A stretch of 64,000 nucleotides of DNA from a virus (Duplodnaviria; Heunggongvirae; Uroviricota; Caudoviricetes). The position numbers and the translations under genes are program-made. Under the pieces are notes generated by a model that saw only the letters and a list, made by a program, of their open reading frames with translations, had not been told where the DNA came from and ran no database searches. The stretch spans positions 158,826-222,825 of IMG/VR virus record IMGVR_UViG_3300012347_000364; one strand, written 5' to 3'. Positions 52,333-64,000 of the stretch are shown here, one piece after another (positions within the stretch are counted from its first letter, which is position 1; each line of letters begins with the position of its first letter).

Positions 52333-52711
52333 CTTAGTCGAAGTAAAATTAAACAATGAAGATGACTTCTTGAAGGTTCGTGAAACACTGACACGGATAG
52401 GAGTTGCATCAAAAAAAGATCAGAAACTTTATCAGTCATGCCATATCCTGCATAAGCAGGGGCGTTACTACATTGTACACTTCAAAGAATTATTTGCCTT
52501 AGATGGCAAACCGACGGACATTTCAGAAGATGATCTGTCACGCCGTAATACGATTGCCAACTTGATGGCGGAGTGGGGATTGGTCACATTGGTTGAGGAA
52601 ACCAAGAGTGCAACGCCAGTCGCTCCTCTATCTCAAATCAAGGTCCTAGCCTTTAAAGAAAAGGACCAGTGGGAATTAGTAGCCAAGTACAACATAGGCC
52701 GTAAGAAATAA
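52316..52711 (+). CDS. regA: Translational repressor RegA
   Basis: DDFLKVRETLTRIG, LYQSCHILHKQG.YYIVHFKELF.LDG. Confidence 0.96.
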   Translation: MTILDSLVEVKLNNEDDFLKVRETLTRIGVASKKDQKLYQSCHILHKQGRYYIVHFKELFALDGKPTDISEDDLSRRNTIANLMAEWGLVTLVEETKSATPVAPLSQIKVLAFKEKDQWELVAKYNIGRKK

Positions 52712-52754
52712 AAGCCTGTTGACTTTATTTTTGAGATGTATATAATTGACCGTA

Positions 52755-53186
52755 ATGAATAACAAATGGCATTCACGTTTCTTTGAGTTAGCTGAGCATG
52801 TTTCAGGATGGTCGCAAGACCCTTCTACTGTGGTTGGCGCTTGTATTGTAAACGATGATAAACAAGTACTAAGTCTCGGATTCAACGGATTTCCGCGTGG
52901 GGTCGAAGATCTCACTGAGAGATACGCAGATAAAGAGACAAAATACAAATTTGTATCACATGCTGAACGTAATGCACTAGATAATGCTTATGTTGACGTT
53001 AAGGGTGCAACGTTGTATAGTACGCTATTCCCATGCAACGAGTGTGCAAAAGGAATTATTCAAAAAGGGATCAAGGAAGTCGTAACGATTAAACCAGATC
53101 TCAATAGGGTGCACAACAGTGTTGATGTGTCCTTAAAGATGTTTGAAGAAGCTGGTGTCAAAATTAGCTACTACGAAAATCTTTAA
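52755..53186 (+). CDS. dCMP deaminase
   Basis: S.DP...VGA, G.NG.PRG, HAE.NA, PC.EC. Confidence 0.92.
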   Translation: MNNKWHSRFFELAEHVSGWSQDPSTVVGACIVNDDKQVLSLGFNGFPRGVEDLTERYADKETKYKFVSHAERNALDNAYVDVKGATLYSTLFPCNECAKGIIQKGIKEVVTIKPDLNRVHNSVDVSLKMFEEAGVKISYYENL

Positions 53187-53204
53187 AATAATTTTAAAAA
53201 ACCG

Positions 53205-53233
53205 TTGACTTGTTCGATAAATTATCTTACAAT
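53205..53233 (+). promoter_or_regulatory. Sigma70-type promoter heading the tRNA region
   Basis: TTGACT-17 nt-TACAAT with an AT-rich UP element. Confidence 0.75.
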
Positions 53234-53310
53234 AGACACTTAGACAGAAATAAATTAGAAATATTTTGTTTCTGACGTCTTCAACCTTAGAAAGTTAGCT
53301 ATATACTAAC

Positions 53311-53424
53311 ATGAAAACAATTTCTTTAAACCTCTTGGCGACATATCGCCAGCCCGCTGAGCATAATAATGGCTCATGGGATTGCTTTACCCCAAGTATT
53401 GGGGTTGCGGGGTCTAAAGGATAA
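53311..53424 (+). CDS. Putative attenuator leader peptide (37 aa, all 20 amino acids)
   Basis: MKTISLNLLATYRQPAEHNNGSWDCFTPSIGVAGSKG*; its 3' end is complementary to the 5' arm of the downstream terminator; no clear SD. Confidence 0.6.
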   Translation: MKTISLNLLATYRQPAEHNNGSWDCFTPSIGVAGSKG

Positions 53425-53460
53425 GTTTAGTGTAAGTATACACCTAGATTCTTTCTAAGG

Positions 53461-53493
53461 ACCCCCGAAGACGCAAGTTTCCGGGGGTTTTTT
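53461..53493 (+). terminator. Intrinsic terminator of the putative attenuator
   Basis: ACCCCCG-A-AGAC[GCAA]GTTT-C-CGGGGGT followed by TTTTT. Confidence 0.8.
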
Positions 53494-53587
53494 GTTGGGT
53501 TAGAAGTTTTTGGCATACCAACTAAGTTGGTGCTGTTTTAGTAAAAACGTTCTTCGGAACAACGATCATTCACAATTTGGATCACAT

Positions 53588-53662
53588 ACTCGATTCGTCT
53601 ATCGGTTAGGACATCAGGTTTTCAACCTGAGAAGAGGGGTTCGACTCCCCTATCGAGTGCCA
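53588..53662 (+). tRNA. tRNA-Glu(TTC)
   Basis: Cloverleaf, TCAGG-TTTTCAA-CCTGA, CCA end. Confidence 0.9.
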
Positions 53663-53755
53663 TATTTAAGCATGTTGGCTTGAACATGGGGTAATACCTT
53701 TGCCTAACGGCTCTCGGATACGCCCCTCAGTATTTCCAATATGTTTAAATATGGC
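53659..53755 (+). ncRNA. Long-stem CCAUA element 1
   Basis: GCCATATTTAAGCATGTTGG pairs with CCAATATGTTTAAATATGGC. Confidence 0.6.
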
Positions 53756-53756
53756 G

Positions 53757-53785
53757 TTGACTTTAAAAAGTCTTTATGTTATAAT
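53757..53785 (+). promoter_or_regulatory. Sigma70-type promoter (internal to tRNA array)
   Basis: TTGACT-17 nt-TATAAT with extended -10 TG. Confidence 0.8.
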
Positions 53786-53793
53786 AAACGCAT

Positions 53794-53867
53794 GCGGGAT
53801 TAGTTTAGTGGTAAAACACTTTCCTTCCAAGTAAGAGTTGCCGGTTCGATTCCGGCATCCCGCTCCA
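53794..53867 (+). tRNA. tRNA-Gly(TCC)
   Basis: Cloverleaf, loop CTTCCAA, CCA; U-U mismatch in anticodon stem. Confidence 0.9.
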
Positions 53868-53872
53868 ACAAT

Positions 53873-53947
53873 GCCCTTGTATCCTTAGTGGTAGAGGTCC
53901 TGTTTTGTAAGCAGGGTGTGGTGGTTCGATTCCATCCTGGGGCACCA
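53873..53947 (+). tRNA. tRNA-Thr(TGT)
   Basis: CCTGT-TTTGTAA-GCAGG, CCA. Confidence 0.88.
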
Positions 53948-54090
53948 TATTGAAGTATATTATTATCGCTCGTAAGGCGACCACCCGTGATAACATGGAT
54001 CATTCTTCGATGTTATCAATGCGAACACAAGGTGATGACTCCCCAAGATATAGAGAATGTGAGAGGGAGATGGTAGTGTATTTCAATATG
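53946..54090 (+). ncRNA. Long-stem CCAUA element 2
   Basis: CATATTGAAGTATATTATTATC pairs with GATGGTAGTGTATTTCAATATG. Confidence 0.6.
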
Positions 54091-54188
54091 ATGTGAATTC
54101 ATTGTGGCTATAGTGTGTACGGGCTGCGTCTCCATGCGGCTGCGGAGACTCATCTGGAGATGGCGACCAGACACATCATAAACAATTT

Positions 54189-54264
54189 GCGGCATTAGCT
54201 CAATCGGGAGAGCACAGCACTGTCACTGCTGAGGTAAGGGGATCGAAACCCCTATGTCGCGCCA
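54189..54264 (+). tRNA. tRNA-Asp(GTC)
   Basis: CAGCA-CTGTCAC-TGCTG, GCCA. Confidence 0.9.
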
Positions 54265-54274
54265 AGTATTTTTT

Positions 54275-54348
54275 ACCTGGATAGTTAAATGGCATAACAG
54301 TCGGCTGATAACCGGCCATCACAAGTTCGATTCTTGTTCTAGGTACCA
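54275..54348 (+). tRNA. tRNA-Ile(GAT)
   Basis: GTCGG-CTGATAA-CCGGC, ACCA. Confidence 0.9.
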
Positions 54349-54361
54349 GGGAAAGTTTTAT

Positions 54362-54437
54362 ACCGTAGAGTTCACCTGATGGTGATACTTCACTGTCTAT
54401 GAAGATGCGGCGGGTTTGATTCCCGTCTACGGTGCCA
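54362..54437 (+). tRNA. tRNA-Asp(GTC), atypical second copy
   Basis: CTTCA-CTGTCTA-TGAAG (U37); T-loop TTTGATT; GCCA. Confidence 0.75.
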
Positions 54438-54444
54438 AGTTTGT

Positions 54445-54523
54445 TGCGGGGTAGAGGAGTCCGGTCGTCCTCGCCAGTCTCATAAGCTGGAGATCGCAGG
54501 TTCAAATCCTGCCCCCGCTACCA
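54445..54523 (+). tRNA. tRNA-Met(CAT), initiator-like
   Basis: 1:72 mismatch, GCGGGG acceptor, loop CTCATAA; lacks the three G-C anticodon-stem pairs. Confidence 0.8.
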
Positions 54524-54530
54524 GTTTTAT

Positions 54531-54605
54531 TCCGAAGTAGCACAGCGGTAGTGCAGTTGACTGTTAATCAATTGGTCGCTGGTTCGATCCCAGCCTTCGG
54601 AGCCA
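54531..54605 (+). tRNA. tRNA-Asn(GTT)
   Basis: GTTGA-CTGTTAA-TCAAT, GCCA. Confidence 0.92.
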
Positions 54606-54610
54606 AATAT

Positions 54611-54684
54611 GCGTGGTTAGTTTAATGGTAAAATCAGACGTTGCCAACGTTTAGTTAAGAGTTCGATTCTCTTACCCCGCACCA
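54611..54684 (+). tRNA. tRNA-Gly(GCC)
   Basis: AGACG-TTGCCAA-CGTTT, ACCA. Confidence 0.85.
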
Positions 54685-54778
54685 AGTTATGAGGTGACGC
54701 TACAGTCGTAACTGCTCGAGCAGGAGAAGACAAAAAGCCTAAGCATGCAGATGAGCTCGCATGGCCTCGATTAGTTTT

Positions 54779-54837
54779 AGGATAGTTACAGCAATTAAAA
54801 AGCTAACTATGGTTGTCTAGCGACAAAAGCTATCCTG
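54779..54837 (+). ncRNA. AGGAU-clamp RNA 1 (minimal insert)
   Basis: AGGATAGTT-ACAGCAA ... AGCTATCCTG. Confidence 0.6.
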
Positions 54838-54846
54838 TTATTTTAT

Positions 54847-54928
54847 GGATGAGATGCTCTAATGGTAGGGCAGCAGGCTGTAACCCTGTGGCTTCGGCAA
54901 GTAGGTTCGATCCCTACCTCATCCACCA
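54847..54928 (+). tRNA. tRNA-Tyr(GTA)
   Basis: GCAGG-CTGTAAC-CCTGT, long V arm, ACCA. Confidence 0.88.
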
Positions 54929-54933
54929 CTCGT

Positions 54934-55019
54934 GGAGTCGTAGGAAAATTGGTAACCCCAGTGGACTGTAAATCCGCCGCCCTTGTGCACTACTGGTTCA
55001 ACTCCAGTCGGCTCCACCA
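54934..55019 (+). tRNA. tRNA-Tyr(GTA), second copy
   Basis: GTGGA-CTGTAAA-TCCGC, long V arm, ACCA. Confidence 0.88.
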
Positions 55020-55024
55020 ATTAT

Positions 55025-55098
55025 CTCGGATTAGTTTAGTGGTAAAACTCGTGGTTTGGGACCATGGGTCGGGTGTTCGATTCACCCATCCGAGACCA
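55025..55098 (+). tRNA. tRNA-Pro(TGG)
   Basis: CGTGG-TTTGGGA-CCATG, ACCA. Confidence 0.88.
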
Positions 55099-55266
55099 AG
55101 AATTAGTCGGCGTAATTAACCGAAAAGTAAGTAGTAGACGATCTTGCCACTTCGGTCGTCTTTGCAGTGTATACTGCGTCAGCAAAGGGCAACTGGATGC
55201 TGAGAAACACTGGGGTAAGAGTCCCAATTGATGGTGTGCACTAATTTAACGCAAAGAGAATTCTTT

Positions 55267-55346
55267 GCTCCGTAGAATCCGAGCCAGGTGCACGGACTTG
55301 ACTGTTAATCAATGACTAGCTGGGTTCGAGTCCCAGATACGGAGCA
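55267..55346 (+). tRNA. Atypical tRNA-Asn(GTT)-like RNA without encoded CCA
   Basis: TTGA-CTGTTAA-TCAA, T arm CTGGG-TTCGAGT-CCCAG; acceptor helix extends to about 14 bp. Confidence 0.6.
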
Positions 55347-55359
55347 AAGAGTTTTTAAT

Positions 55360-55434
55360 GGGGGCAGTAGAGGGCTACGGTGGTTCCTTGCAAGAATCAT
55401 GTCTAGATCGGTTCGATACCGACGGTCTCCACCA
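55360..55434 (+). tRNA. tRNA-Ala(TGC), atypical D arm
   Basis: GGTTC-CTTGCAA-GAATC, G3-U70, ACCA. Confidence 0.72.
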
Positions 55435-55473
55435 ATTTTATACTCGATTATAGTAAAGTATAGTCGATTATAC

Positions 55474-55548
55474 ACCCGGTTAGCTCAGGGGTAGAGCACA
55501 CGCTTGATAAGCGTTAGGTCGCAAGTTCAAATCTTGCACTGGGTACCA
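55474..55548 (+). tRNA. tRNA-Ile(GAT), second copy
   Basis: ACGC-TTGATAA-GCGT, ACCA. Confidence 0.88.
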
Positions 55549-55553
55549 GTTTT

Positions 55554-55620
55554 AGGATAGGTTCTGCAATCTTATAGAACACCAAACTTTTAATTTGACA
55601 CGTTCGTCAACACTATCCTG
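55554..55620 (+). ncRNA. AGGAU-clamp RNA 2 enclosing a Lys(UUU)-like anticodon stem-loop
   Basis: AGGATAG..CTGCAA ... CAAA-CTTTTAA-TTTG ... CTATCCTG. Confidence 0.6.
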
Positions 55621-55630
55621 TTGTATTTGT

Positions 55631-55706
55631 GGGGGTATAGCTCATCTGGTAGAGCAGGTGCTTTGCAAGCATCAGGTGGCGGGTTCGAGTCCTGTTGCCT
55701 CCACCA
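55631..55706 (+). tRNA. tRNA-Ala(TGC)
   Basis: Canonical cloverleaf, G3-U70, ACCA. Confidence 0.92.
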
Positions 55707-55804
55707 AGGTTTCGGCCGAAAGAAAACTGTTCGACGGGCTCTATGGGGTCGGAGCGTCCTAGAAAAGAACAGGGGTACGAGTCCCAAGTTCCCGCCAAAT
55801 TTAT

Positions 55805-55879
55805 GTACCATTAGACTTCTGGTGAGGTCATCACCCTTTCAAGGTGACTAGACGGGATCGTAACCCGTATGGTACTCCA
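55805..55879 (+). tRNA. tRNA-Glu(TTC), second copy
   Basis: TCACC-CTTTCAA-GGTGA; T-loop ATCGTAA. Confidence 0.82.
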
Positions 55880-55880
55880 A

Positions 55881-56178
55881 GGCAAATAGTAATCTTGTTT
55901 TGATGCATGGTTACTCAATGTTTGTTAGTTTCAATGGGTGCTATAGAAACTAACCCAAACACTAAGACAACACTTAGTAAGATGAGTAGACGGAAACCGA
56001 CCCAGGAGAGACTTCCTGGGCTTCACAGTGCGTGGACACGATGAGAAACGCAAGGTGACGAACGATAAGCAAAGTCGGTCCAGTAGGGGTAAGAAAAGTG
56101 TTGTCGGCGGAAAGAACTGCCGGACGTCAGAAGTTATGAGTGCGCTAGCATTTGATAACGCCGTGTATACGTACCACA
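55881..56178 (+). ncRNA. Candidate ~300-nt structured ncRNA of unknown class
   Basis: No credible ORF; long-range pair GACAACACTT/AAGTGTTGTC and several local hairpins. Confidence 0.45.
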
Positions 56179-56179
56179 T

Positions 56180-56254
56180 GGATTGTAAACTTTGAAGATG
56201 AAGTCCCGGCTCTTAACCGGCGAGAAGACAGTTTGAGTCTGTCACGATCCACCA
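56180..56254 (+). tRNA. tRNA-Lys(CTT), atypical D/T loops
   Basis: CCGG-CTCTTAA-CCGG; T-loop TTTGAGT; ACCA. Confidence 0.75.
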
Positions 56255-56404
56255 TATTATAATACATTTTTGTCTACATGCGGGGTAAGGTTCCTCGGTA
56301 GGTGTGCCAGAACGAGAATAGTCTTGCAAGGTAAAGCTCGTGGTAACACATCAAAAACCTACAGATGGCGTTGACAACCATTTGGGAGTGTATTATAATA
56401 TGGT
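56251..56404 (+). ncRNA. Long-stem CCAUA element 3
   Basis: ACCATATTATAATACATTTTT pairs with GGGAGTGTATTATAATATGGT. Confidence 0.6.
56371..56399 (+). promoter_or_regulatory. Consensus sigma70 promoter overlapping the 3' arm of element 3
   Basis: TTGACA-17 nt-TATAAT. Confidence 0.8.
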
Positions 56405-56409
56405 ATAAT

Positions 56410-56483
56410 CTGGGTATAGGATAATGGTAGTCAGTGAGTCTTGGATACTCGCAGCGCAAGTTCGATTCTTGCTACCCAGACCA
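56410..56483 (+). tRNA. tRNA-Pro(TGG), second copy with A37
   Basis: TGAGT-CTTGGAT-ACTCG, ACCA. Confidence 0.8.
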
Positions 56484-56492
56484 AAAGAATTA

Positions 56493-56568
56493 GCTCGCGA
56501 AGTATTAGTTGGTGGTATGCCGCCCTCGTAACGCGGAGGATTGGGTTCGAGGCCCGACGTGAGCACCA
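56493..56568 (+). tRNA. tRNA-Thr(CGT)
   Basis: CCGCC-CTCGTAA-CGCGG, ACCA. Confidence 0.75.
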
Positions 56569-56571
56569 AGT

Positions 56572-56762
56572 TTTGTAAGTGTTAGCAAGTTGAAGTACGT
56601 TGAAAAGATTCTTCGAAGGTCTTTAGATGAAAAAAGGTTCGGGTGCGATTCCCCTTGTCCCTAGGATGGAGAACTTATGGATACCCAAGTAACGTACCGA
56701 ACTCCCTGTGCACATAACTGATGGGTGAATGGTTCCGATAACGTGGTGGAACAGCTTACAAA
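56572..56762 (+). ncRNA. Structured RNA with tRNA-like arms (possible clamp-family relative)
   Basis: Closing stem TTTGTAAGT/GCTTACAAA, TAGCAA after the 5' arm, AAGATT-CTTCGAA-GGTCTT and GGG-TGCGATT-CCC hairpins. Confidence 0.45.
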
Positions 56763-56770
56763 TTTAATAT

Positions 56771-56854
56771 GCCCCTGTGGTGGAATGGCAGACACGCTGG
56801 TCTTAGAAACCAGTGCCGAAAGGCGTGCGAGTTCGAGTCTCGCTGGGGGCACCA
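56771..56854 (+). tRNA. tRNA-Leu(TAG)
   Basis: CTGGT-CTTAGAA-ACCAG, long V arm, ACCA. Confidence 0.92.
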
Positions 56855-56972
56855 TATTGAAGTATTCTTGGCATAAGTCAAAGCGGGAGAAGACGTTTAG
56901 TATCTGCAGATGCGAATGCGTCAGTGGATCTATCCCCTCCTATGCCTGCATTCGAGAGTATTTCAATATGGT
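56851..56972 (+). ncRNA. Long-stem CCAUA element 4
   Basis: ACCATATTGAAGTATTCTTG pairs with CGAGAGTATTTCAATATGGT. Confidence 0.6.
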
Positions 56973-57042
56973 AGGCGTAGTTGCAACGTGAAGGGTTCCA
57001 TGGACCTGGAAGCCTACCACCAAATTTTAATATAAGGACAGT

Positions 57043-57303
57043 ATGAATATTATTCCAATTCGTGATAAGGTTGCAGTTGTGCAATTGAAAAACAGCACAA
57101 CTACCGACAGTGGTATTATTTTACAAGGCGATGTCTCGCAAGAAGCGAAGCGCGGTAAGGTAATCGCAGTCGGTCCAGAAGTACAAGATGTTAAGGAAGG
57201 CGACGTAGTCTTACTTGACTGGGTACATGCAATTCAATCCAAGATTGAGAATATCCCATTCTTCCTTATTAAAGAACAGCACGTGATTGCTGTTGTAGAG
57301 TAA
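57043..57303 (+). CDS. groES: Co-chaperonin GroES (Cpn10)
   Basis: P..DKV.V, T.SGII mobile loop, G.V.AVGP, VK.GD.V, E..V.AV. Confidence 0.9.
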   Translation: MNIIPIRDKVAVVQLKNSTTTDSGIILQGDVSQEAKRGKVIAVGPEVQDVKEGDVVLLDWVHAIQSKIENIPFFLIKEQHVIAVVE

Positions 57304-57308
57304 TTTAA

Positions 57309-57384
57309 GCCCTTGTAGCTCAGGTGGTAGAGCAGTGGATTGAAAATCCATGTGTCGGCGGTTCGACTCCGTCCAGGGGCACCA
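57309..57384 (+). tRNA. tRNA-Phe(GAA)
   Basis: GTGGA-TTGAAAA-TCCAT, ACCA. Confidence 0.93.
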
Positions 57385-57509
57385 AGTTTTGTAGAGACAC
57401 GTATTGCCAATCTGTTGCAAGTAATACACAGTATGAAAGCTTCGCCGGTGTGTCCCGTCTATGTTCAGAGTTTGGCACTGGACTTACTACAAATTAGTTT
57501 AGACCATTT

Positions 57510-57628
57510 AGGTTCATTTCAGCAACTACAAATAATCTTTCTATGAAAAAGAGGGTCTGGGTTCGAATCCCAGCTCAGGTTTGGTCTCCTGATGTGGTGT
57601 AATGGTAGCACGATAAAAGTTGAACCTG
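57510..57628 (+). ncRNA. AGGAU-clamp RNA 3: circularly permuted tRNA body (anticodon ATG)
   Basis: AGGTTCA..CAGCAA, then anticodon arm, T arm, loop-closed acceptor, D arm, then TGAACCTG. Confidence 0.75.
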
Positions 57629-57632
57629 TTAT

Positions 57633-57706
57633 ATCTCGGTAGTGTAATGGCAGCATACCAGTCTCCAAAACTGTTGGTCGGGGTTCGAGTCCCTGCCGGG
57701 ATGCCA
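57633..57706 (+). tRNA. tRNA-Trp(CCA) with 4-bp anticodon stem
   Basis: CCAGT-CTCCAAA-ACTGT (C27-U43 mismatch); U11-A24; GCCA. Confidence 0.88.
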
Positions 57707-57713
57707 AGAATAT

Positions 57714-57805
57714 GGATAGTGATGCAGCTGGGTTGGTCCGGCGACGAGCCTTGAAAACTCGGTTCTCAGAAATGGGATGGGGTTCGACTCCTCCGCTATC
57801 CGCCA
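57714..57805 (+). tRNA. tRNA-Ser(TGA), 8/4-type fold
   Basis: Acceptor GGATAGTG/CGCTATCC, T stem GGGG/CCTC, long V arm, GCCA. Confidence 0.78.
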
Positions 57806-57872
57806 TGTTATGGGACAAAAATATAATTCTGTAAAGAATTTATTCTGCAATTTAAATTGTCCCGCCATTTTT

Positions 57873-57989
57873 AGGATACTTACAGCAATGTCTATTAGAC
57901 ACGTTGGTTCGAATCCAACATTTGGGGCTTCCCAAATTCGCTCAGCGGTTGAGCAAACGACTTATAATCGTTCACTAAAAAGTATCCTG
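57873..57989 (+). ncRNA. AGGAU-clamp RNA 4: circularly permuted tRNA body (anticodon TAT)
   Basis: AGGATACTT-ACAGCAA, T arm, ATTTGGG[GCTT]CCCAAAT acceptor, D arm, AACGA-CTTATAA-TCGTT, AAGTATCCTG. Confidence 0.8.
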
Positions 57990-57998
57990 TTGTTTTGT

Positions 57999-58076
57999 TC
58001 CCCCTTCGCCTAGTCTGGCCTAAGGCACTGGTCTTTGAAATCAGTATCGTTGGTTCGAATCCAACAGGGGGTGCCA
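57999..58076 (+). tRNA. tRNA-Gln(TTG)
   Basis: CTGGT-CTTTGAA-ATCAG, weak 1:72 pair, GCCA. Confidence 0.88.
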
Positions 58077-58085
58077 ATGTTTTAT

Positions 58086-58200
58086 GTCGCGGTGGTGTAA
58101 TGGTAGCACGCTATAAAGGTGATCCTGATTAGGATACGTGCAGCATACATTTTCCACTGTCAATGGAGATGACCAGGTTCGATTCCTGGCCGCGACGCCG
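58086..58200 (+). tRNA. tRNA-Asp(GTC)-like RNA with a ~41-nt clamp-motif insertion between D and anticodon arms
   Basis: Acceptor GTCGCGG/CCGCGAC, D arm, insert containing ATCCTG-ATT-AGGATAC-GTG-CAGCA, TTCCA-CTGTCAA-TGGAG, T arm; ends GCCG. Confidence 0.7.
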
Positions 58201-58466
58201 ATCATGTCATGGTGTAATGAGAATGCACGGGATCGCCACATAAGTCCGTCGAAGATAAGGCGGTGGAACAAGGTTCAGGTGTGGTAGGAACCCACAACGA
58301 CATACAATTTTTCGAGATAGACGTAGAGGTTGAGTCCCTTGTATTCTAGTGCCCTTAACTTGAGCATGACACGCCAGTAGAATTGTACAAGGTAGTCTTA
58401 AACTCCCTCATACGAGACAACCCAGCGAGTCCTTGAGAAAGATAGCTGGTCTCTCGAAACCCTTTT

Positions 58467-58570
58467 AGGATGACTGCTGCAACATAAAATTACTTCCACC
58501 ATAATCGGGAGGCCAGCCCGCAGGGGGCATTGTCGTAGGGTTCGAGTCCCGGTCTTGACAAATCATCCTG
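58467..58570 (+). ncRNA. AGGAU-clamp RNA 5
   Basis: AGGATGA..CTGCAA ... GGG-TTCGAGT-CCC T-loop hairpin ... TCATCCTG. Confidence 0.6.
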
Positions 58571-58579
58571 TTATACGAT

Positions 58580-58670
58580 GGAAGGTATAGTCGATGTGGT
58601 ATCGACGCCCGCCTGGAAAGCGGGAGACTGGTTAACGCCGGTCAGAGTTCGACTCTCTTACCTTCCTCCA
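58580..58670 (+). tRNA. tRNA-Ser(GGA), 8/4 fold with 6-bp D stem (allo-tRNA-like)
   Basis: GGAAGGTA/TACCTTCC, GTCGAT/ATCGAC, CCCGC-CTGGAAA-GCGGG, AGAG/CTCT. Confidence 0.78.
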
Positions 58671-58797
58671 TATTCAAACATACTCATCATTGGTAGCAGA
58701 CTTCGAGCAACTTGGTTAATAGTTGAGTCTCGCTATGAAGCAGCCTAACCAGCGCGGTGAAAATCCCCCTGACGGAGAGAGTGTGTTTGAATATGGA
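58667..58797 (+). ncRNA. Long-stem CCAUA element 5
   Basis: TCCATATTCAAACATACTC pairs with GAGTGTGTTTGAATATGGA. Confidence 0.6.
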
Positions 58798-58830
58798 TAG
58801 CGCGTTGCTAGATTGAAATAATTGAAGTAG

Positions 58831-58859
58831 TTGCCTTTTGAGGTGACTCGTTGTATAAT
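58831..58859 (+). promoter_or_regulatory. Sigma70-type promoter
   Basis: TTGCCT-17 nt-TATAAT, ending 8 nt before tRNA-Ser(CGA). Confidence 0.6.
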
Positions 58860-58867
58860 AATTAATT

Positions 58868-58955
58868 GGAAGATTAACTGAGTGGGACTCAGCGCTGTTT
58901 CGAAAGCAGTTGGACTCAGCAATGGGTTGGGGCTCGGGACCTCATTCTTCCGCCA
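58868..58955 (+). tRNA. tRNA-Ser(CGA), atypical D and T arms
   Basis: GCTGT-TTCGAAA-GCAGT, D stem CTGAGT/ACTCAG, T-loop CTCGGGA, GCCA. Confidence 0.7.
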
Positions 58956-58986
58956 CAATAACAATAACAATAACAAGGGAGCTACT

Positions 58987-59127
58987 ATGTCACGTAAAGA
59001 TACGCTAAACAAAGCATATGGTAGCATACCAAAAGAGGTGTACGCTGGTTTCAATACGGATTGGATACCAGAGTTTCGTGGAATAAAGTTTATATGGGTA
59101 AAGACTAAAAGGTTCTTTACTCGTTGA
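58987..59127 (+). CDS. Small hypothetical protein (46 aa)
   Basis: AAGGGAG RBS; MSRKDTLNKAYGSIPKEV... Confidence 0.55.
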   Translation: MSRKDTLNKAYGSIPKEVYAGFNTDWIPEFRGIKFIWVKTKRFFTR

Positions 59128-59134
59128 GATAGAT

Positions 59135-59224
59135 GGAGCGTGGGCCGGATGGTAAGGCAGCGGATTGCTAATCCGTACAATCACGAAAGTGGTTGATAGG
59201 GTTCGACTCCCTAACGCTCCGCCA
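59135..59224 (+). tRNA. tRNA-Ser(GCT)
   Basis: GCGGA-TTGCTAA-TCCGT, long V arm, GCCA. Confidence 0.9.
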
Positions 59225-59294
59225 AATTGTGTCGCGACTAATCAGGGGTGCTTGCGTTCTCGCCCTGTTAAAAATAAAAATATGACGCAGCCAC

Positions 59295-59386
59295 ACCTCG
59301 ATAGTTTAATGGTAAAACGGCGGATTTATATCCCGTAAGCAACAGATAATTGGTTCATCCGAGTTCGAATCTCGGTCGAGGTACCA
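59295..59386 (+). tRNA. tRNA-Ile(TAT)-like with long variable region
   Basis: ACCTCGA/TCGAGGT acceptor, loop TTTATAT, 22-nt variable region, ACCA. Confidence 0.7.
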
Positions 59387-59387
59387 A

Positions 59388-59570
59388 TCACTTTTTAATC
59401 TTCGCCATTAGTTTGTGGCGGATGTTAGAATCATTATATGAAAGAGATGCCAGCAGTCCAATCAGGTATCCTTTTTCATATAATGATTTAGCACGTTCAT
59501 TATTGAATGTACGCTTACTGCATGCTTTGTCGAGCAGTTTGTGGATTAGTTGTACGTGCATGTCAAACAT
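59388..59570 (-). CDS. Small antisense-orientation hypothetical protein (60 aa)
   Basis: MFDMHVQLIHKLL...LYEKGYLIGLLASL...; fills the gap between two tRNAs; CATAAATA late-promoter-like motif 5 nt upstream on the - strand. Confidence 0.5.
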   Translation of the reverse strand: MFDMHVQLIHKLLDKACSKRTFNNERAKSLYEKGYLIGLLASLSYNDSNIRHKLMAKIKK

Positions 59571-59582
59571 AGAAATATTTAT

Positions 59583-59669
59583 GTCTGGGTGGCAGAGCGA
59601 TCGAATGCGACGGATTGCAAATCCGTATCCGAAAGGGCACCGTCGGTTTAAATCCGACCCCAGATTCCA
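59583..59669 (+). tRNA. tRNA-Cys(GCA) with long variable arm
   Basis: ACGGA-TTGCAAA-TCCGT, U73 discriminator, V arm TCC-GAAA-GGG. Confidence 0.78.
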
Positions 59670-59674
59670 AACAT

Positions 59675-59758
59675 GCGAGAGTGGTGGAATGGCATACACA
59701 GCAGACTTAAAATCTGCCGCCGAAAGGCTTGCGGGTTCGAGTCCCGCCTCTCGCACCA
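59675..59758 (+). tRNA. tRNA-Leu(TAA)
   Basis: GCAGA-CTTAAAA-TCTGC, long V arm, ACCA. Confidence 0.92.
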
Positions 59759-59764
59759 AGTTTT

Positions 59765-59962
59765 AGGATCCTTTCAGCAACACAAATGCATTGAAAGCCT
59801 CGTGTCGGTGGTGCGAATCCACCCTCCTCCACTAAGAGTACATTATGGAGTTTACCCGCTACACTACTAAAGGATCGCAACCTGTAGTAATAAAAAACGT
59901 GTGGTATTGTACTCTTAGTGGAGGAGTAGCTCAGTTAGTAGAGCAGAGTAAAGTGGATCCTG
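59765..59962 (+). ncRNA. AGGAU-clamp RNA 6: permuted tRNA with acceptor extended by a long stem
   Basis: AGGATCC..CAGCAA, 3' tRNA half (..GCCTC GTGTC GGTGG TGCGAAT CCACC CTCCTCCA), long hairpin, 5' half (GGAGGAG TA GCTC AGTTAGTA GAGC A GAG), GGATCCTG. Confidence 0.75.
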
Positions 59963-59971
59963 TTGTTTAAT

Positions 59972-60048
59972 GCGTCTTTAGCTTAACTGGAGAAAGCACT
60001 GGCCTACGAAGCCGGGGGATGGGGATTCGAATTCCTCAGGACGCACCA
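59972..60048 (+). tRNA. tRNA-Arg(ACG)
   Basis: CTGGC-CTACGAA-GCCGG, ACCA. Confidence 0.88.
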
Positions 60049-60052
60049 ATTT

Positions 60053-60129
60053 GCCTCTTTAGCTCAACTGGATAGAGTCCTGTCCTTCGAAGTCAGTTGT
60101 TGGGGGTTCGAATCCCTCAGGGGGCACCA
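60053..60129 (+). tRNA. tRNA-Arg(TCG)
   Basis: CTGTC-CTTCGAA-GTCAG, ACCA. Confidence 0.85.
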
Positions 60130-60130
60130 T

Positions 60131-60205
60131 GGTGGTATGGCGTAGATGGATGCGCACCGGCTTCATAAGCCGAGGAGGTTGGATCGATACCAACTACCAC
60201 CACCA
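60131..60205 (+). tRNA. tRNA-Met/Ile2(CAT)
   Basis: CGGC-TTCATAA-GCCG, ACCA; elongator Met vs lysidine-Ile not resolvable by eye. Confidence 0.8.
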
Positions 60206-60225
60206 ATTAGCGAATAAGTGTCATG

Positions 60226-60253
60226 TTGACATTTGTTCAAATCAATGTATAAT
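60226..60253 (+). promoter_or_regulatory. Sigma70-type promoter
   Basis: TTGACA-16 nt-TATAAT. Confidence 0.7.
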
Positions 60254-60274
60254 TAATGTTTTAGAGGAACGAAA

Positions 60275-60406
60275 ATGAAGACGAAACCGATCGTCAAGGA
60301 ACGTAACTGCTTCGTTCGCTTGGCACTATTCCGAAAAGCAGGGTCGCACCGCAAGTCCAATAAGGCTTTGCGTAAAGCGGCAAACCAAATGCCTTTGGGT
60401 CTATAG
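60275..60406 (+). CDS. Small basic protein (43 aa) whose stop codon lies inside tRNA-Lys
   Basis: GAGGA RBS; MKTKPIVKERNCFVRLALFRKAGSHRKSNKALRKAANQMPLGL*; TAG equals tRNA positions 8-10. Confidence 0.6.
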   Translation: MKTKPIVKERNCFVRLALFRKAGSHRKSNKALRKAANQMPLGL

Positions 60407-60474
60407 TTTAACGGCATAAAACATCCGGCTTTTAACCGGTAAGACTCTCGGTTCGAATCCGAGTAGACCCACCA
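60397..60474 (+). tRNA. tRNA-Lys(TTT)
   Basis: GGGTCTA/TAGACCC, CCGG-CTTTTAA-CCGG, ACCA. Confidence 0.88.
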
Positions 60475-60556
60475 TATAAAAACATACTCGCTGAAGTTGG
60501 TTCAGTTAGACAGGGAGATCCAATTGCCTATGTTGTTGAGTGTGTTTTTATATGGT
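60471..60556 (+). ncRNA. Long-stem CCAUA element 6
   Basis: ACCATATAAAAACATACTC pairs with GAGTGTGTTTTTATATGGT. Confidence 0.6.
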
Positions 60557-60605
60557 TAATGTTATCGGCCGGTAACAACCATATTCGGAAGTCATGACTC
60601 CGAAG

Positions 60606-60681
60606 AACTCGCGGTCTTCTAATGGTAGGAAATCCTCGCTAAAGAGGCTAATGCAGGTTCGATTCCTGTCCGCAATGAGTT
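60606..60681 (+). ncRNA. Degenerate tRNA-like RNA
   Basis: D loop TAATGGTA, CCTC-GCTAAA-GAGG arm, GCAGG-TTCGATT-CCTGT T arm, bulged acceptor, no CCA. Confidence 0.45.
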
Positions 60682-60683
60682 TG

Positions 60684-60786
60684 CATATAAAAGTGCATCG
60701 AGCCAAGACGTCGTACTCTTGGTCTTCGAGATAATGTTCGGTGAGCGTTAGCACAATAACTGATCTAATCGGTGTACTTTTATATG
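60684..60786 (+). ncRNA. Long-stem element 7
   Basis: CATATAAAAGTGCATCGA pairs with TCGGTGTACTTTTATATG. Confidence 0.55.
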
Positions 60787-60832
60787 GTAGTCTCTTAGTA
60801 CAATGGTCACACGCCCTTGCTAAGATGTTATT

Positions 60833-60927
60833 GCCATAGTTGAATACATTCCCGTACTGATGAGGGTGGTAGCCTCATATCGTGCAGGACTAAAGAACTA
60901 CTACGTCTGAATGTATTCACCTATGGT
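60833..60927 (+). ncRNA. Long-stem element 8
   Basis: GCCATAGTTGAATACATTC pairs with GAATGTATTCACCTATGGT. Confidence 0.55.
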
Positions 60928-60930
60928 TAT

Positions 60931-61008
60931 GCCCACATGGACAAATTGGCAAAGTCGCTTCTCTCAAAAGGAAGAGCTCTCTCGGTTCGACTCCGAGTGT
61001 GGGTACCA
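60931..61008 (+). tRNA. tRNA-Leu(CAA) lacking the long variable arm
   Basis: CTTCT-CTCAAAA-GGAAG, 6-nt V region, ACCA. Confidence 0.8.
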
Positions 61009-61011
61009 ACT

Positions 61012-61080
61012 TTATACACAGATGTTAGTTCGATTCTAACCCTGATGAAGAGTAGCATAATATGGTAATGCAGTGTATAA
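61012..61080 (+). ncRNA. Permuted tRNA-elbow mimic (YrlA-like topology)
   Basis: Closing stem TTATACAC/GTGTATAA encloses T arm, short loop-closed acceptor and D arm; no anticodon loop. Confidence 0.65.
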
Positions 61081-61130
61081 TTCGAGGCCTCGCGCTGACT
61101 TGTCGCGTATAATGAGATAAATTACAAGTC

Positions 61131-61236
61131 ACTTTTCTAGAACACAATGAGGCGAACGCGACGCCTTTATGTGGAGCATAGCTGGGCCCTTGGCCTGGTC
61201 ACCAGTTCAATTCTGGTAATTGTGTTCTAGAAAAGT
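61131..61236 (+). ncRNA. tRNA-like module within an 18-bp stem
   Basis: ACTTTTCTAGAACACAAT/ATTGTGTTCTAGAAAAGT perfect inverted repeat enclosing an ACCAG-TTCAATT-CTGGT T arm. Confidence 0.5.
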
Positions 61237-61237
61237 C

Positions 61238-61311
61238 GCTTCCGTAGTTCAATGGTAGAACGATGCTTTGACATGGCATAGACAGAAGTTCAATTCTTCT
61301 CGGAAGCACCA
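61238..61311 (+). tRNA. tRNA-Val(GAC)
   Basis: ATGCT-TTGACAT-GGCAT, ACCA. Confidence 0.85.
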
Positions 61312-61318
61312 AACAGGT

Positions 61319-61431
61319 TTTGCGCATTAGTGTAACGGTAGCATTGCCCCGAGAGGGTTGCTTTTACGGTTCAATTCCGTTTGATGGTGGTCCAAGCAAA
61401 TTGAGGATAGGGTTCAATTCCCTAGCGCAAA
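61319..61431 (+). ncRNA. tRNA-like RNA with two T-loop hairpins
   Basis: TTTGCGC/GCGCAAA closing stem, D arm GTGT-AACGGTA-GCAT, ACGG-TTCAATT-CCGT and TAGGG-TTCAATT-CCCTA. Confidence 0.5.
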
Positions 61432-61439
61432 TTAATTAT

Positions 61440-61514
61440 GGTGGCTATAGTGTAGTGGAAGCACCCGAGTCTGTGAAACTCGTAGTACGGGATCGTTACC
61501 CGTTAGTCACCCCA
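61440..61514 (+). tRNA. tRNA-His(GTG)
   Basis: G-1/C73, CGAGT-CTGTGAA-ACTCG, CCA. Confidence 0.88.
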
Positions 61515-61525
61515 AGTATAAGTAT

Positions 61526-61756
61526 ATGATGTATAAAGTAAAAGGTTCAGTAGTAACATTCGATGTAATGACATTGGATGAAGCGATGCATACTGCTAAG
61601 ATAATGAACGAGTTTGTGACTATCACAGGTCCGGAGTTTGAAGTCGTAGGCATGTTCGGTGTAGATACTGTTAAGGACGGTAAGTGTCCGGACGGTGTTG
61701 CATACGACTGGAATAAAGCATCTAGAATAGGTGCTCCAAAAAGAGTAAGAGCATGA
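61526..61756 (+). CDS. Hypothetical protein
   Basis: 76-aa ORF, ATGA-coupled to the next gene. Confidence 0.6.
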   Translation: MMYKVKGSVVTFDVMTLDEAMHTAKIMNEFVTITGPEFEVVGMFGVDTVKDGKCPDGVAYDWNKASRIGAPKRVRA

Positions 61757-61920
61757 AATCCCCAGTCTTCGGTGCGCGTGCCGGTAACGTCAAGCTCAGA
61801 GGTAAGAAGACAAAGTTGATGTCGTGCAAGTGTTGCCACATGATCAACTGTAAATGGGAACATCGCTTTAAACAAGCAGAAAAAGAAATCAAGGAGAGCT
61901 CTAATGAAACGAGTAATTGA
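61753..61920 (+). CDS. Small basic Cys-containing protein (55 aa)
   Basis: MKSPVFGARAGNVKLRGKKTKLMSCKCC...; overlaps both neighbours. Confidence 0.5.
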   Translation: MKSPVFGARAGNVKLRGKKTKLMSCKCCHMINCKWEHRFKQAEKEIKESSNETSN

Positions 61921-62581
61921 GATTCGAGCCGCTGAAGGCGGAGAAGACAGTAAGTTGTTTGTGACCGATTTAGCACAAGCATACCAACGTTTAGGAACGA
62001 AGTTCGGCTGAACTACCCGCCTGATAGATGTACGTCTTGGCGAGTGTAGTTTAGAAGTTCAAGGCGCAGATCTATCCGGCTTAGATAACGAGCCAGGAGG
62101 ACACCGTATTCAGCGTGTACCTCCAACAGAACGTAAAGGTCGCGTTCATACAAGTACAGTCACTGTTGCCGTAATCGATGGTGAAAATAAGTACCAAACA
62201 TCCAACATCAAAGACTCTGACCTACGAGTCGAATGGTACTCTGGTACTGGCGCTGGTGGTCAACACCGTAATAAGCATCAGAACAGCTGTAGAATCACCC
62301 ATATACCATCGAACACTGTCGCGACGGCACAATGCCGCAGTAGACAGAATAGTTACAATGAAGCGATGGCTTCTATCCGCAGCCGTGTTGACTTTTCCAA
62401 CGAGATGCGTTATAATCAGAGTGTAGCGATCGATAGAAAGCTTCAAGTTGGTTCTGGTATGCGTGGCGACAAAATGCGCACTTATCGATTCCAGGATGAT
62501 GTTGTTAAAGATCACCAAACCAATCGATCTGCTAGTGTCAAGAAAGTGCTAGCGGGTAATTTTAATTTATTGTGGAGCTAA
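61904..62581 (+). CDS. Class I peptide chain release factor (RF1-like, no domain 1) with in-frame UGA at codon 36
   Basis: AGGAG RBS; IEIRAAEGGEDS.LF...L...Y, TGA 62009-62011, then E.GGHRIQRVPPTERKGRVHTSTVTVAV, GTGAGGQH.NK..NS.RITHIPS, RSR.NS, GSG.RGDK.RTY.F..D.V.DH. Confidence 0.85.
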
Positions 62582-62582
62582 T

Positions 62583-63092
62583 ATGGAAACGATTCGTTGG
62601 ATCGAAAACATTGCTTGGGACGACTGTAAGAACGGCTGGCATATGGATGCTGGTCCCAATGCTATGTTGATTCAGATTATGGATCCATGTAGCACATTCC
62701 CTACTCCTAAGCGTGAGTTTAAGGAGGTCCATCAGTTTGAATTTCTAGACATTGAGGATTCGGACGTTAAGATGGATCCTAATATGGGAGAATTTGCAAT
62801 TACAGACGAACAAGCACAAAAACTTGTTGACTTATTGCAAAAAGCAAAAGACAATAGCATGAATGTGATCGTTCATTGCTTTGCAGGTATCTGCCGAAGT
62901 GGTGCTGTATGTGAGTTGGGTGTAATGCTTGGCTTCACGGCTACAGATCGTTACAGACAACCTAACCTCCGAGTCAAACACAAAATGATGAAGTGCTTGG
63001 GTTGGACTTATGACGAAGATGAAAAATCAGTCGGCACCGGTGGAAGCATCAGTGCCGGTGGGATTCTTATCCCTTATAAAGATATGGAGTAA
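62583..63092 (+). CDS. Cys-based (PTP/DSP-fold) phosphatase
   Basis: VHCFAGICRSGAV (CX5R) loop; F.D acid loop. Confidence 0.85.
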   Translation: METIRWIENIAWDDCKNGWHMDAGPNAMLIQIMDPCSTFPTPKREFKEVHQFEFLDIEDSDVKMDPNMGEFAITDEQAQKLVDLLQKAKDNSMNVIVHCFAGICRSGAVCELGVMLGFTATDRYRQPNLRVKHKMMKCLGWTYDEDEKSVGTGGSISAGGILIPYKDME

Positions 63093-63095
63093 TAT

Positions 63096-63707
63096 ATGTC
63101 AAACGTGTTCGTTGTAAGCGATACGCACTTCGGTCACGTTGGCGTATGTCGCTTCATGCAAAATGATGGAGTAACTAAACTCCGTCCCTGGGACAGTCCG
63201 GAAGAAATGGATGAGGCAATGGTTAAGTCTTGGAACGAGACTGTTGGCCCAAACGATAAAGTATATCATCTCGGTGATGTGGTAATTAACCGACGTGCTC
63301 TTAGCACTGTTGCAAGACTTAATGGTGACAAGGTCCTTATTAAAGGGAACCACGACATCTTCCGTCTTGAAGAGTATACTACATACTTCAGAGATGTTAG
63401 AGCGTATCATGTGATGAGTGGAATGATCCTCAGCCACATTCCGGTTCACGCCGATAGCCTTGCTAGATTTGGCTGCAACATCCATGGCCACCTTCACGCC
63501 AACCGTGTAATGAAGCCAATCGGTGTTGATGCTCGAACTGGTGTGGTAAAGTATGGCAATCAAATTGATCCTAGATACTTCAACGTCTCTGTCGAGCAGA
63601 TTGGTTTTAAGCCAATTGCCCTCGAAGAGCTCAAGAAGCGTATTATTGAGCAGGGTGGTGAAATATCTTTCCGTCAAGGAAATGGTTCAGCACCCGTTGT
63701 CATGTAA
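63096..63707 (+). CDS. Calcineurin-like metallophosphoesterase
   Basis: SDTHFGH, HLGD, GNHD, SH.P, HGHLH. Confidence 0.9.
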   Translation: MSNVFVVSDTHFGHVGVCRFMQNDGVTKLRPWDSPEEMDEAMVKSWNETVGPNDKVYHLGDVVINRRALSTVARLNGDKVLIKGNHDIFRLEEYTTYFRDVRAYHVMSGMILSHIPVHADSLARFGCNIHGHLHANRVMKPIGVDARTGVVKYGNQIDPRYFNVSVEQIGFKPIALEELKKRIIEQGGEISFRQGNGSAPVVM

Positions 63708-63723
63708 CCTATAAGGATATATA

Positions 63724-63915
63724 ATGTCTGAGAAGTATTCAAAGTTTGAAGAAGTTGTTTTGTCAATGAAAGACGACTTCGAAAAGTTTTATGATAAAGA
63801 AAATAATGCTGCCGGTGCTCGCGTCCGTAAGCACTTGCAGACTTTAGCAGTTCTCTGTAAAGAAGGTCGTAAAGACGTTACAGAAGTTAAGGCCGCTCGC
63901 GCTGCTGCTAAGTAA
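63724..63915 (+). CDS. Histone H1-like (Hc1-type) small protein
   Basis: DFEKFY.K.N.AAG.R.RK.LQ.L...K..RK.V pattern. Confidence 0.7.
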   Translation: MSEKYSKFEEVVLSMKDDFEKFYDKENNAAGARVRKHLQTLAVLCKEGRKDVTEVKAARAAAK

Positions 63916-63923
63916 CTATTAAT

Positions 63924-63998
63924 GCCTTGTTAGCTCAGGGGTAGAGCGTCTCCTTTACACGGAGAGGGTCGGCGGTTCGAAACCGTCACAAGGTACCA
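63924..63998 (+). tRNA. tRNA-Val(TAC)
   Basis: TCTCC-TTTACAC-GGAGA, ACCA. Confidence 0.92.
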
Positions 63999-64000
63999 AA

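Follow-up and report, generated by a model that had tools for sequence, protein, structure and literature searches.

A probable, conserved leader-peptide attenuator with a near-complete amino-acid alphabet ahead of phage tRNA arrays

Why phages carry tRNA genes has been asked for decades. According to the leading recent answer, phage tRNAs replace host tRNAs destroyed by defences (PMC10264068; see also PMC11555353, PMC12409363). The locus described here raises a narrower question: what does a short open reading frame (ORF) that encodes every amino acid do between a promoter and an intrinsic terminator, ahead of a tRNA array? It lies in a 64,000-nucleotide stretch of DNA (the window), which is the final 64 kb of a 222.8-kb virus record that has terminal repeats and is rated complete. 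The genes upstream of the leader are T4-like (clamp loader, RegA and dCMP deaminase), and among cultured phages the closest clamp loaders are those of Stenotrophomonas phage DLP6 (66%) and of the Methylophilales Melnitz phages (64%). The carrier is a large uncultured T4-like phage. We consider it probable that the locus is a transcription attenuator that depends on ribosomes: its leader ORF would sample nearly all of the tRNA pool, and the switch would raise transcription into the tRNA array.

Switch anatomy and leader content in the window

The elements named in a preliminary description of this DNA were all recovered (Table 1): a sigma-70-like promoter, two upstream hairpins (TGAGC/GCTCA and ACCCCAA/TTGGGGT), a GNRA-capped terminator, which had been placed at 53461-53493, and an antiterminator that excludes it. 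In the terminator, a C-run (53462-53466) pairs with a G-run (53483-53487) around a GCAA loop (53473-53476), followed by a U-tract (53488-53493). The two alternative folds of 53400-53493 are similar in strength, at -26.9 kcal/mol for the terminator and -28.1 kcal/mol for the antiterminator, and the folding of the region has a z-score of -7.55. A further pairing, between 53285-53294 and 53451-53460, favours the terminating fold in untranslated RNA and was not seen in relatives. The hairpin at 53389-53405 is a candidate polymerase pause hairpin. On the plus strand of 52700-64000 we found no second strong intrinsic terminator, and none interrupts the tRNA array.

Table 1. Coordinates of the leader, its switch and the downstream region in the window
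Feature	Position	Strand	Remarks
Sigma-70-type promoter of leader	53205-53233	+	10/12 consensus match; predicted start near 53240
5' UTR segment	53285-53294	+	perfect 10-base complement to 53451-53460; from folding
Leader ORF	53311-53424	+	37 codons, all 20 amino acids; without Shine-Dalgarno; predicted sensing zone codons 2-29
Segment 1, anti-antiterminator	53321-53334	+	pairs with segment 2 in naked RNA; from consensus fold of 5 homologues
Hairpin inside ORF	53358-53376	+	stem invariant across 5 homologues, thus offering no covariation evidence
Hairpin inside ORF	53389-53405	+	maintained by two-sided changes
Segment 2, antiterminator 5' strand (G-run)	53409-53421	+	last five codons of ORF
Segment 3	53450-53466	+	partner of segment 2 (antiterminator) or segment 4 (terminator)
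Intrinsic terminator	53462-53493	+	GNRA loop and U-tract
Degenerate boxA-like element	53564-53575	+	9/12; candidate rrn-type antitermination signal for read-through RNA
tRNA array	53588-63998	+	34 genes in window plus 3 more at start of genome record; all 20 amino acids covered
tRNA-Glu(TTC)	53588-53662	+	first gene behind switch
Strong internal promoter	53757-53785	+	11/12, TG extension; after first tRNA, just ahead of tRNA-Gly; bypasses switch
Long stems	53659-53755, 53943-54093, 56251-56404, 56851-56972, 58667-58797, 60471-60556, 60684-60786, 60834-60926		
GroES-like gene	57043-57303		
Dual-specificity phosphatase-like gene	62583-63092		
Metallophosphoesterase gene	63096-63707		
Hc1 histone-like gene	63724-63915		

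The leader ORF translates as first reported, with 19 amino acids in its first 26 codons. The chance calculation proposed along with that report puts all 20 amino acids in 37 codons at ~0.1-0.5% (0.3-0.5% of random sense-codon strings, 0.11% of protein windows). As the leader is one of 243 short ORFs in the window, among which roughly one of this kind may be expected by chance, the all-20 content of this single ORF is not beyond chance; it is the comparative data that make this content non-random. The count of 30 different codons was also correct, but it is what chance gives for this peptide (null mean 29.8, P = 0.58) and no sign of design. Of 36 leader codons, 13 match a phage anticodon exactly, against 52% genome-wide, and four have no phage tRNA reader under strict wobble; on these grounds we rejected codon-level design of this leader. 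Additionally, with a single codon for each amino acid, several isoacceptors go unsampled, which counts against a pool sensor.

We agree that the leader ORF lacks a clear Shine-Dalgarno sequence, which counts against its translation, but this absence is normal for the class: a simple test found one in only 6 of the 58 related leaders described below. A possible second -10 box in the window ends just 3 nt before the leader ATG, which likewise tells against attenuation by this ORF. In about one quarter of the related leaders a -10 box ends 5-10 nt before the ATG, which suggests leaderless starts there. A T4 late promoter at the leader ATG was rejected, as the genome's version, TATAAATA, is absent there. 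The leader peptide has no match in Pfam or NCBIfam and, in a search for a host origin, no relative in GTDB genomes; 1.84 billion protein representatives gave one whole-profile match of 49 amino acids, which we take as a family member.

Leaders ahead of tRNA arrays in other phages

Close relatives were fetched by their dCMP deaminase, and four loci (L001, L002, L004 and L006) carry a homologous leader between this gene and tRNA-Glu. Their leaders have 39 codons with 19, 19, 17 and 19 amino acids, respectively, so none has 20, a point against a whole-pool sensor. The ORF start, frame and stop region are kept in all four, indels are whole codons, and L001, L002 and L006 have a promoter of similar kind in the same place. 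The G-run and both terminator arms co-vary, including a C-G to U-A change in L004 that is mirrored upstream. The consensus fold of the five homologues pairs a segment at codons 4-8 with the G-run region and retains the terminator, which is the 1:2 and 3:4 layout of an attenuator. Thus, a short ORF conserved in frame lies between a promoter and the genes it would regulate, together with an exclusive, co-varying antiterminator. In two further loci (L003:3429 and L005:3472; dCMP deaminase 78-79%) tRNA-Glu comes straight after the gene and a leader is absent; evidently the element can disappear or change place.

Leaders of other sequence were fetched via RegA or via the terminator alone. They include L081 (38 codons, 20 amino acids), L083 (43 codons, 20), L137 (27 codons, 19) and L180-182 (51-58 codons, 20), and the antiterminator is present in all of them. 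All stand before tRNA arrays except L137, which lies 356 nt from its contig end. We then scanned viral contigs with a pattern made of the antiterminator, terminator arms and U-tract only, and chose ORFs by a rule blind to composition. There were 118 viral matches, 60 of them before tRNA genes (a tRNA within 1.5 kb). Each of the 60 has a short ORF whose stop falls within the switch; in 36 of them this ORF encodes all 20 amino acids, compared with 2 of 28 ORFs without tRNAs. Among the first 80 matches, all 39 that were tRNA-linked had such an ORF, 19 of them with all 20 amino acids against an expectation of 0.65-0.85, and none of 21 ORFs without tRNAs was complete. The 38 held-out matches, unseen when the rule was set, gave 17 complete leaders among 21 that were tRNA-linked.

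The pattern is biased towards Gly and Val at the 3' end, so the test was run again with only the codons before the G-run and with the initiator removed. The 58 usable leaders fall into 29 families at a rough alignment threshold; with one leader tested per family, completeness has a Stouffer z of 8.4, against mean z values of -0.02 for ORFs without tRNAs and 0.46 for other frames. Some families may share a distant ancestor, which makes 29 the maximum number of independent origins. Leaders use Cys, Trp and His about twice as often as phage proteins do, and an internal Met occurs in 48 of 58. Thus, the near-complete sets that the preliminary description proposed to look for are kept in both homologous and unrelated leaders. 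The covarying pairing it also proposed appears at antiterminator positions that the search left free, where 36 of 48 pairs are Watson-Crick, evenly split between C-G and U-A, compared with 8 of 30 and 35 of 119 in controls. In 57 of 58 leaders the distance from the stop to the terminator arm that follows is 21-32 nt. Dozens of unrelated phages place the same design before tRNAs. Some leaders are very compact (L260:2685-2759, L257, L137 and L246), with 19 amino acids in 25-27 codons or 20 in 31.

These comparisons bear on whether the ORF matters at all. A stand-alone structured non-coding RNA of ~255 nt, with the ORF as a by-product, could account for the strong folding z-score, the missing Shine-Dalgarno sequence and the synonymous sites that are invariant in the conserved core of the peptide. 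We regard it as very improbable, given frame-keeping indels, the lack of an Rfam family, an ORF-plus-switch layout common to unrelated sequences, and completeness that is specific to the reading frame.

Additionally, leader content tracks tRNA content. The L229 leader is built on Ser, Leu, Cys and Tyr and is followed by Cys, Tyr, Leu and Ser tRNAs only, and the incomplete leaders of L235, L284 and L227 likewise match partial tRNA blocks. Where the leader is incomplete (14 loci), the array much more often lacks those amino acids that the leader lacks too (odds ratio 7.5, with non-independent cells and arrays that may be cut by locus ends). The match is imperfect, as L006 lacks Val in its leader yet has a tRNA-Val in its array. 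In the window, leader codons and products correspond at the amino-acid level, the array covering all 20. The same switch layout was seen with shorter alphabets matched to the block behind them in L229, L235/L251, L284, L227 and L210.

Among the 120 bacterial matches listed for the RNA pattern used on viral contigs, none was both tRNA-linked and complete; they include a few classical-looking ilv/leu leaders and one 59-codon all-20 ORF without tRNAs. Searches for a cultured carrier (tblastn/blastn with three leader families and with window and L081 DNA) gave no match, and the stretches around tRNA genes of nine cultured phages, including DLP6, held no such leader, although some of these stretches may miss the array start.

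Modelled ribosome position, likely trigger and reach into the array

The ribosome footprint was modelled at the point where polymerase has released the terminator 5' arm but not yet the 3' arm, an equilibrium treatment of a kinetic switch. In L001, L002, L004 and L081 a ribosome stalled anywhere between codon 2 and about codon 29-31 leaves the modelled antiterminator free to form, whereas a footprint on the G-run abolishes it; in the shorter L137 the antiterminator forms for stalls up to codon 19. Window RNA starting at the ATG gives the same switch, at codons 30-31; counting the relatives and window RNA with its 5' part masked, the clean switch falls at codons 30-32. When the whole 71-nt UTR is included, the model works for a single ribosome at codons 2-13 only; at codons 14-29 the window-specific 10-bp helix between 53285-53294 and 53451-53460, together with 1:2 pairing, outcompetes the antiterminator, a point against the mechanism. 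The switch returns if the RNA behind the ribosome is masked too, for instance by a second ribosome in a queue, and the untranslated long RNA folds towards termination. Once the hairpin is complete, equilibrium folding is uninformative, as the terminator nearly always wins; thus, the switch must be kinetic.

The model narrows what can be sensed. The preliminary description proposed that a ribosome reaching the stop masks the antiterminator and that a stall lets transcription through; the switch anatomy, with its conservation and covariation in relatives, agrees with this, whereas the predicted sensing zone shrinks to codons 2-29. These codons encode 18 amino acids (P 0.007-0.009) and lack Val and an internal Met: Val32 sits where the ribosome would already be covering the antiterminator strand, and the sole Met is the initiator. 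On this modelling, 'all 20' holds for the ORF and not for the sensor.

Because any stall before codon 30 yields the same fold, the attenuator might instead be a general gauge of translation speed or coupling, responsive to antibiotics, ribosome damage or elongation-factor toxins, with the broad alphabet only spreading stall sites. The whiB7, toiL and PA5471.1 leaders react to a range of ribosome inhibitors, and a lone codon is a weaker stall site than the codon runs in trpL or hisL, both of which count for such a gauge. However, it does not need a near-complete alphabet, and leaves unaccounted for the shrinking of the alphabet with partial tRNA blocks (for example L229) the enrichment of rare residues and the internal Met in 48 of 58 leaders. 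We judge it unlikely, and continue with a leader that samples the tRNA pool.

In the mechanism we propose, host RNA polymerase would start at the 53205 promoter and a ribosome would follow on the leader. A ribosome at codon 30 or beyond would cover the G-run, letting the terminator form and stopping transcription at ~53493. A lag anywhere in codons 2-29, where a tRNA is cut, uncharged or scarce, would allow the G-run to capture the terminator 5' arm, and polymerase would then continue beyond the boxA-like site to transcribe tRNA-Glu and the remaining array. Such read-through would add to the basal output of internal promoters until phage tRNAs restore decoding and the switch closes. Extra tRNA is no cure for amino-acid starvation, and hosts deplete tRNAs on infection, notably by anticodon nucleases (PMC10264068); thus, we infer that loss of host tRNAs is a likelier trigger than amino-acid starvation.

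How far the switch controls the array is a separate matter. The switch does stand before the array, but to describe it as gating the tRNA region was an overstatement, given the bypass promoter at 53757 and promoters between the terminator and the first tRNA in 28 of 58 related leaders. As the preliminary description itself had cautioned, internal promoters are predicted to give independent downstream expression, from 53757 and from others further on. Between the terminator and tRNA-Glu no promoter exceeds 7/12, so tRNA-Glu depends on read-through, and the strong promoter after this first tRNA points to a booster rather than a gate. We infer basal transcription from internal promoters, joined by an inducible long transcript from the leader promoter. 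BoxA elements of at least 10/12 occur in the terminator-to-tRNA gap of 22 of 58 related leaders, against 0.5 in shuffles, an enrichment that suggests Nus-factor antitermination of phage tRNA operons. Elements of rrn type, some perfect, were noted before the phage tRNA arrays of L214, L238, L253, L256, L223, L279 and L282.

Bypass promoters also fit a different account, in which the ORF makes a functional small peptide or arrest peptide, the hairpin is a plain terminator insulating the tRNA array, and the tRNAs rely on their own promoters. The peptide core from E17 to I30, which is conserved among the five close relatives, agrees with this. Yet completeness, spacing and antiterminator pairing are shared by ~29 families without a common motif, the peptide lacks relatives outside its family in Pfam, NCBIfam and protein searches, and in some leaders the gap before the first tRNA is nearly zero (9-10 nt in L246, L265 and L289). 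We think this account improbable.

With attenuation as the preferred reading, the phage probably makes extra tRNAs when a shortage of almost any tRNA stalls translating ribosomes. We give an even chance to a broader proposal: that large phages have repeatedly evolved a one-of-each 'pangram' leader as an anti-defence sensor, in which a ribosome would stall at the codon of almost any single host tRNA that is cleaved or lost, so that the attenuator opens and a full replacement tRNA set floods the cell, under negative feedback. If a whole-pool sensor is wired to the array in this manner, phage tRNAs would be made on demand, upon decoding failure. This idea is directly testable by a 300-nt reporter, and the leader alphabet predicts which tRNA losses are detectable. 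It would also extend trp-style attenuation to tRNA genes and to viruses, and provide a compact reporter for tRNA-targeting defence systems.

Known systems and neighbouring genes

We conclude that this is most likely a real, conserved leader-peptide attenuator of a kind that we did not find in print, which would work like the whiB7 upstream ORF (uORF), has the layout of trp/his leaders and belongs to neither. Our literature search, the coverage of which was mostly of journals outside subscription, found no paper on attenuation of phage tRNA arrays. The whiB7/wblC uORF of Actinobacteria is likewise short and diverse and overlaps an antiterminator before an intrinsic terminator, with stalling leading to read-through. 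In M. smegmatis it contains every amino acid except Cys, and its composition sets the starvations sensed; removal of its single Trp codon weakens the response to Trp deprivation (10.1101/2023.06.02.543512), a precedent that one codon can suffice. It differs in being Ala-enriched, in controlling a host transcription factor and in not being reported as selected for completeness. In contrast, the phage leader has its own full tRNA set as target, is complete across ~29 sequence families and tracks the tRNA block in content. Membership of whiB7/wblC was rejected, as the downstream gene is tRNA-Glu and Ala is not enriched (3 of 37 codons in the window leader; 5.8% across leader families); the predicted mechanism alone is alike.

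The trpL, hisL, pheL, leuL, thrL and ilv leaders and pheM-pheST have a four-segment layout (1:2, 2:3, 3:4), a stop shortly before the terminator and codons matched to the product, all of which the phage leader shares. Those leaders use runs of one to three amino acids and target enzymes, whereas the phage leader has about one codon each of 18-20 amino acids and targets viral tRNA genes. A classical amino-acid operon leader was rejected on the lack of a codon run, the tRNA targets and Rfam scores far below cut-off; no Rfam family matched above cut-off, His_leader and PyrR appearing only far below it.

The leaders of the armZ (RtcB-like) operon in Pseudomonas aeruginosa, PA5471.1, and of E. coli toiL also report translation stress and induce downstream genes. 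Both are described as antibiotic sensors (PMC12057347 and PMC12121999, respectively), toiL working by translational occlusion and Rho; unlike the phage leader, they are not reported to be alphabet-complete or to control tRNA genes. T-box riboswitches similarly link tRNA status to antitermination, but bind one uncharged tRNA directly, without a ribosome, and T-box membership was rejected because there was no Rfam match at E up to 10.

Several further features were noted around the array. Six elements (at 54773, 55548, 57504, 57867, 58461 and 59759) share a TAGGAT...CAGCAA start; those at 54773 and 55548 close with CCTGTT, and some of the six enclose sequence like a tRNA T-arm. They match no Rfam family, the 54773 element being weakly like Dictyostelium class I RNA (E 0.2). 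There are also long stems (16-25 bp) around unrelated loops of ~50-120 nt, and several of these stems begin in the CCA end of a tRNA. Elsewhere in the genome (G000) are a tRNA with a CTA anticodon, a possible amber suppressor, just past the continuation of the array (C1:130-204), and a permuted tmRNA with a 10-residue tag (C1:113486-113987). A release-factor-like gene at 61904-62581, with PCRF and RF-1 domains and GGQ and PPT motifs, has an in-frame TGA at 62009-62011 with PCRF similarity on both sides, and may be read through or broken. Proteins encoded in or after the array are GroES-like, dual-specificity phosphatase-like, a metallophosphoesterase and Hc1 histone-like, and phosphoesterase genes of similar kind lie downstream of the leaders in L276, L277 and L299.
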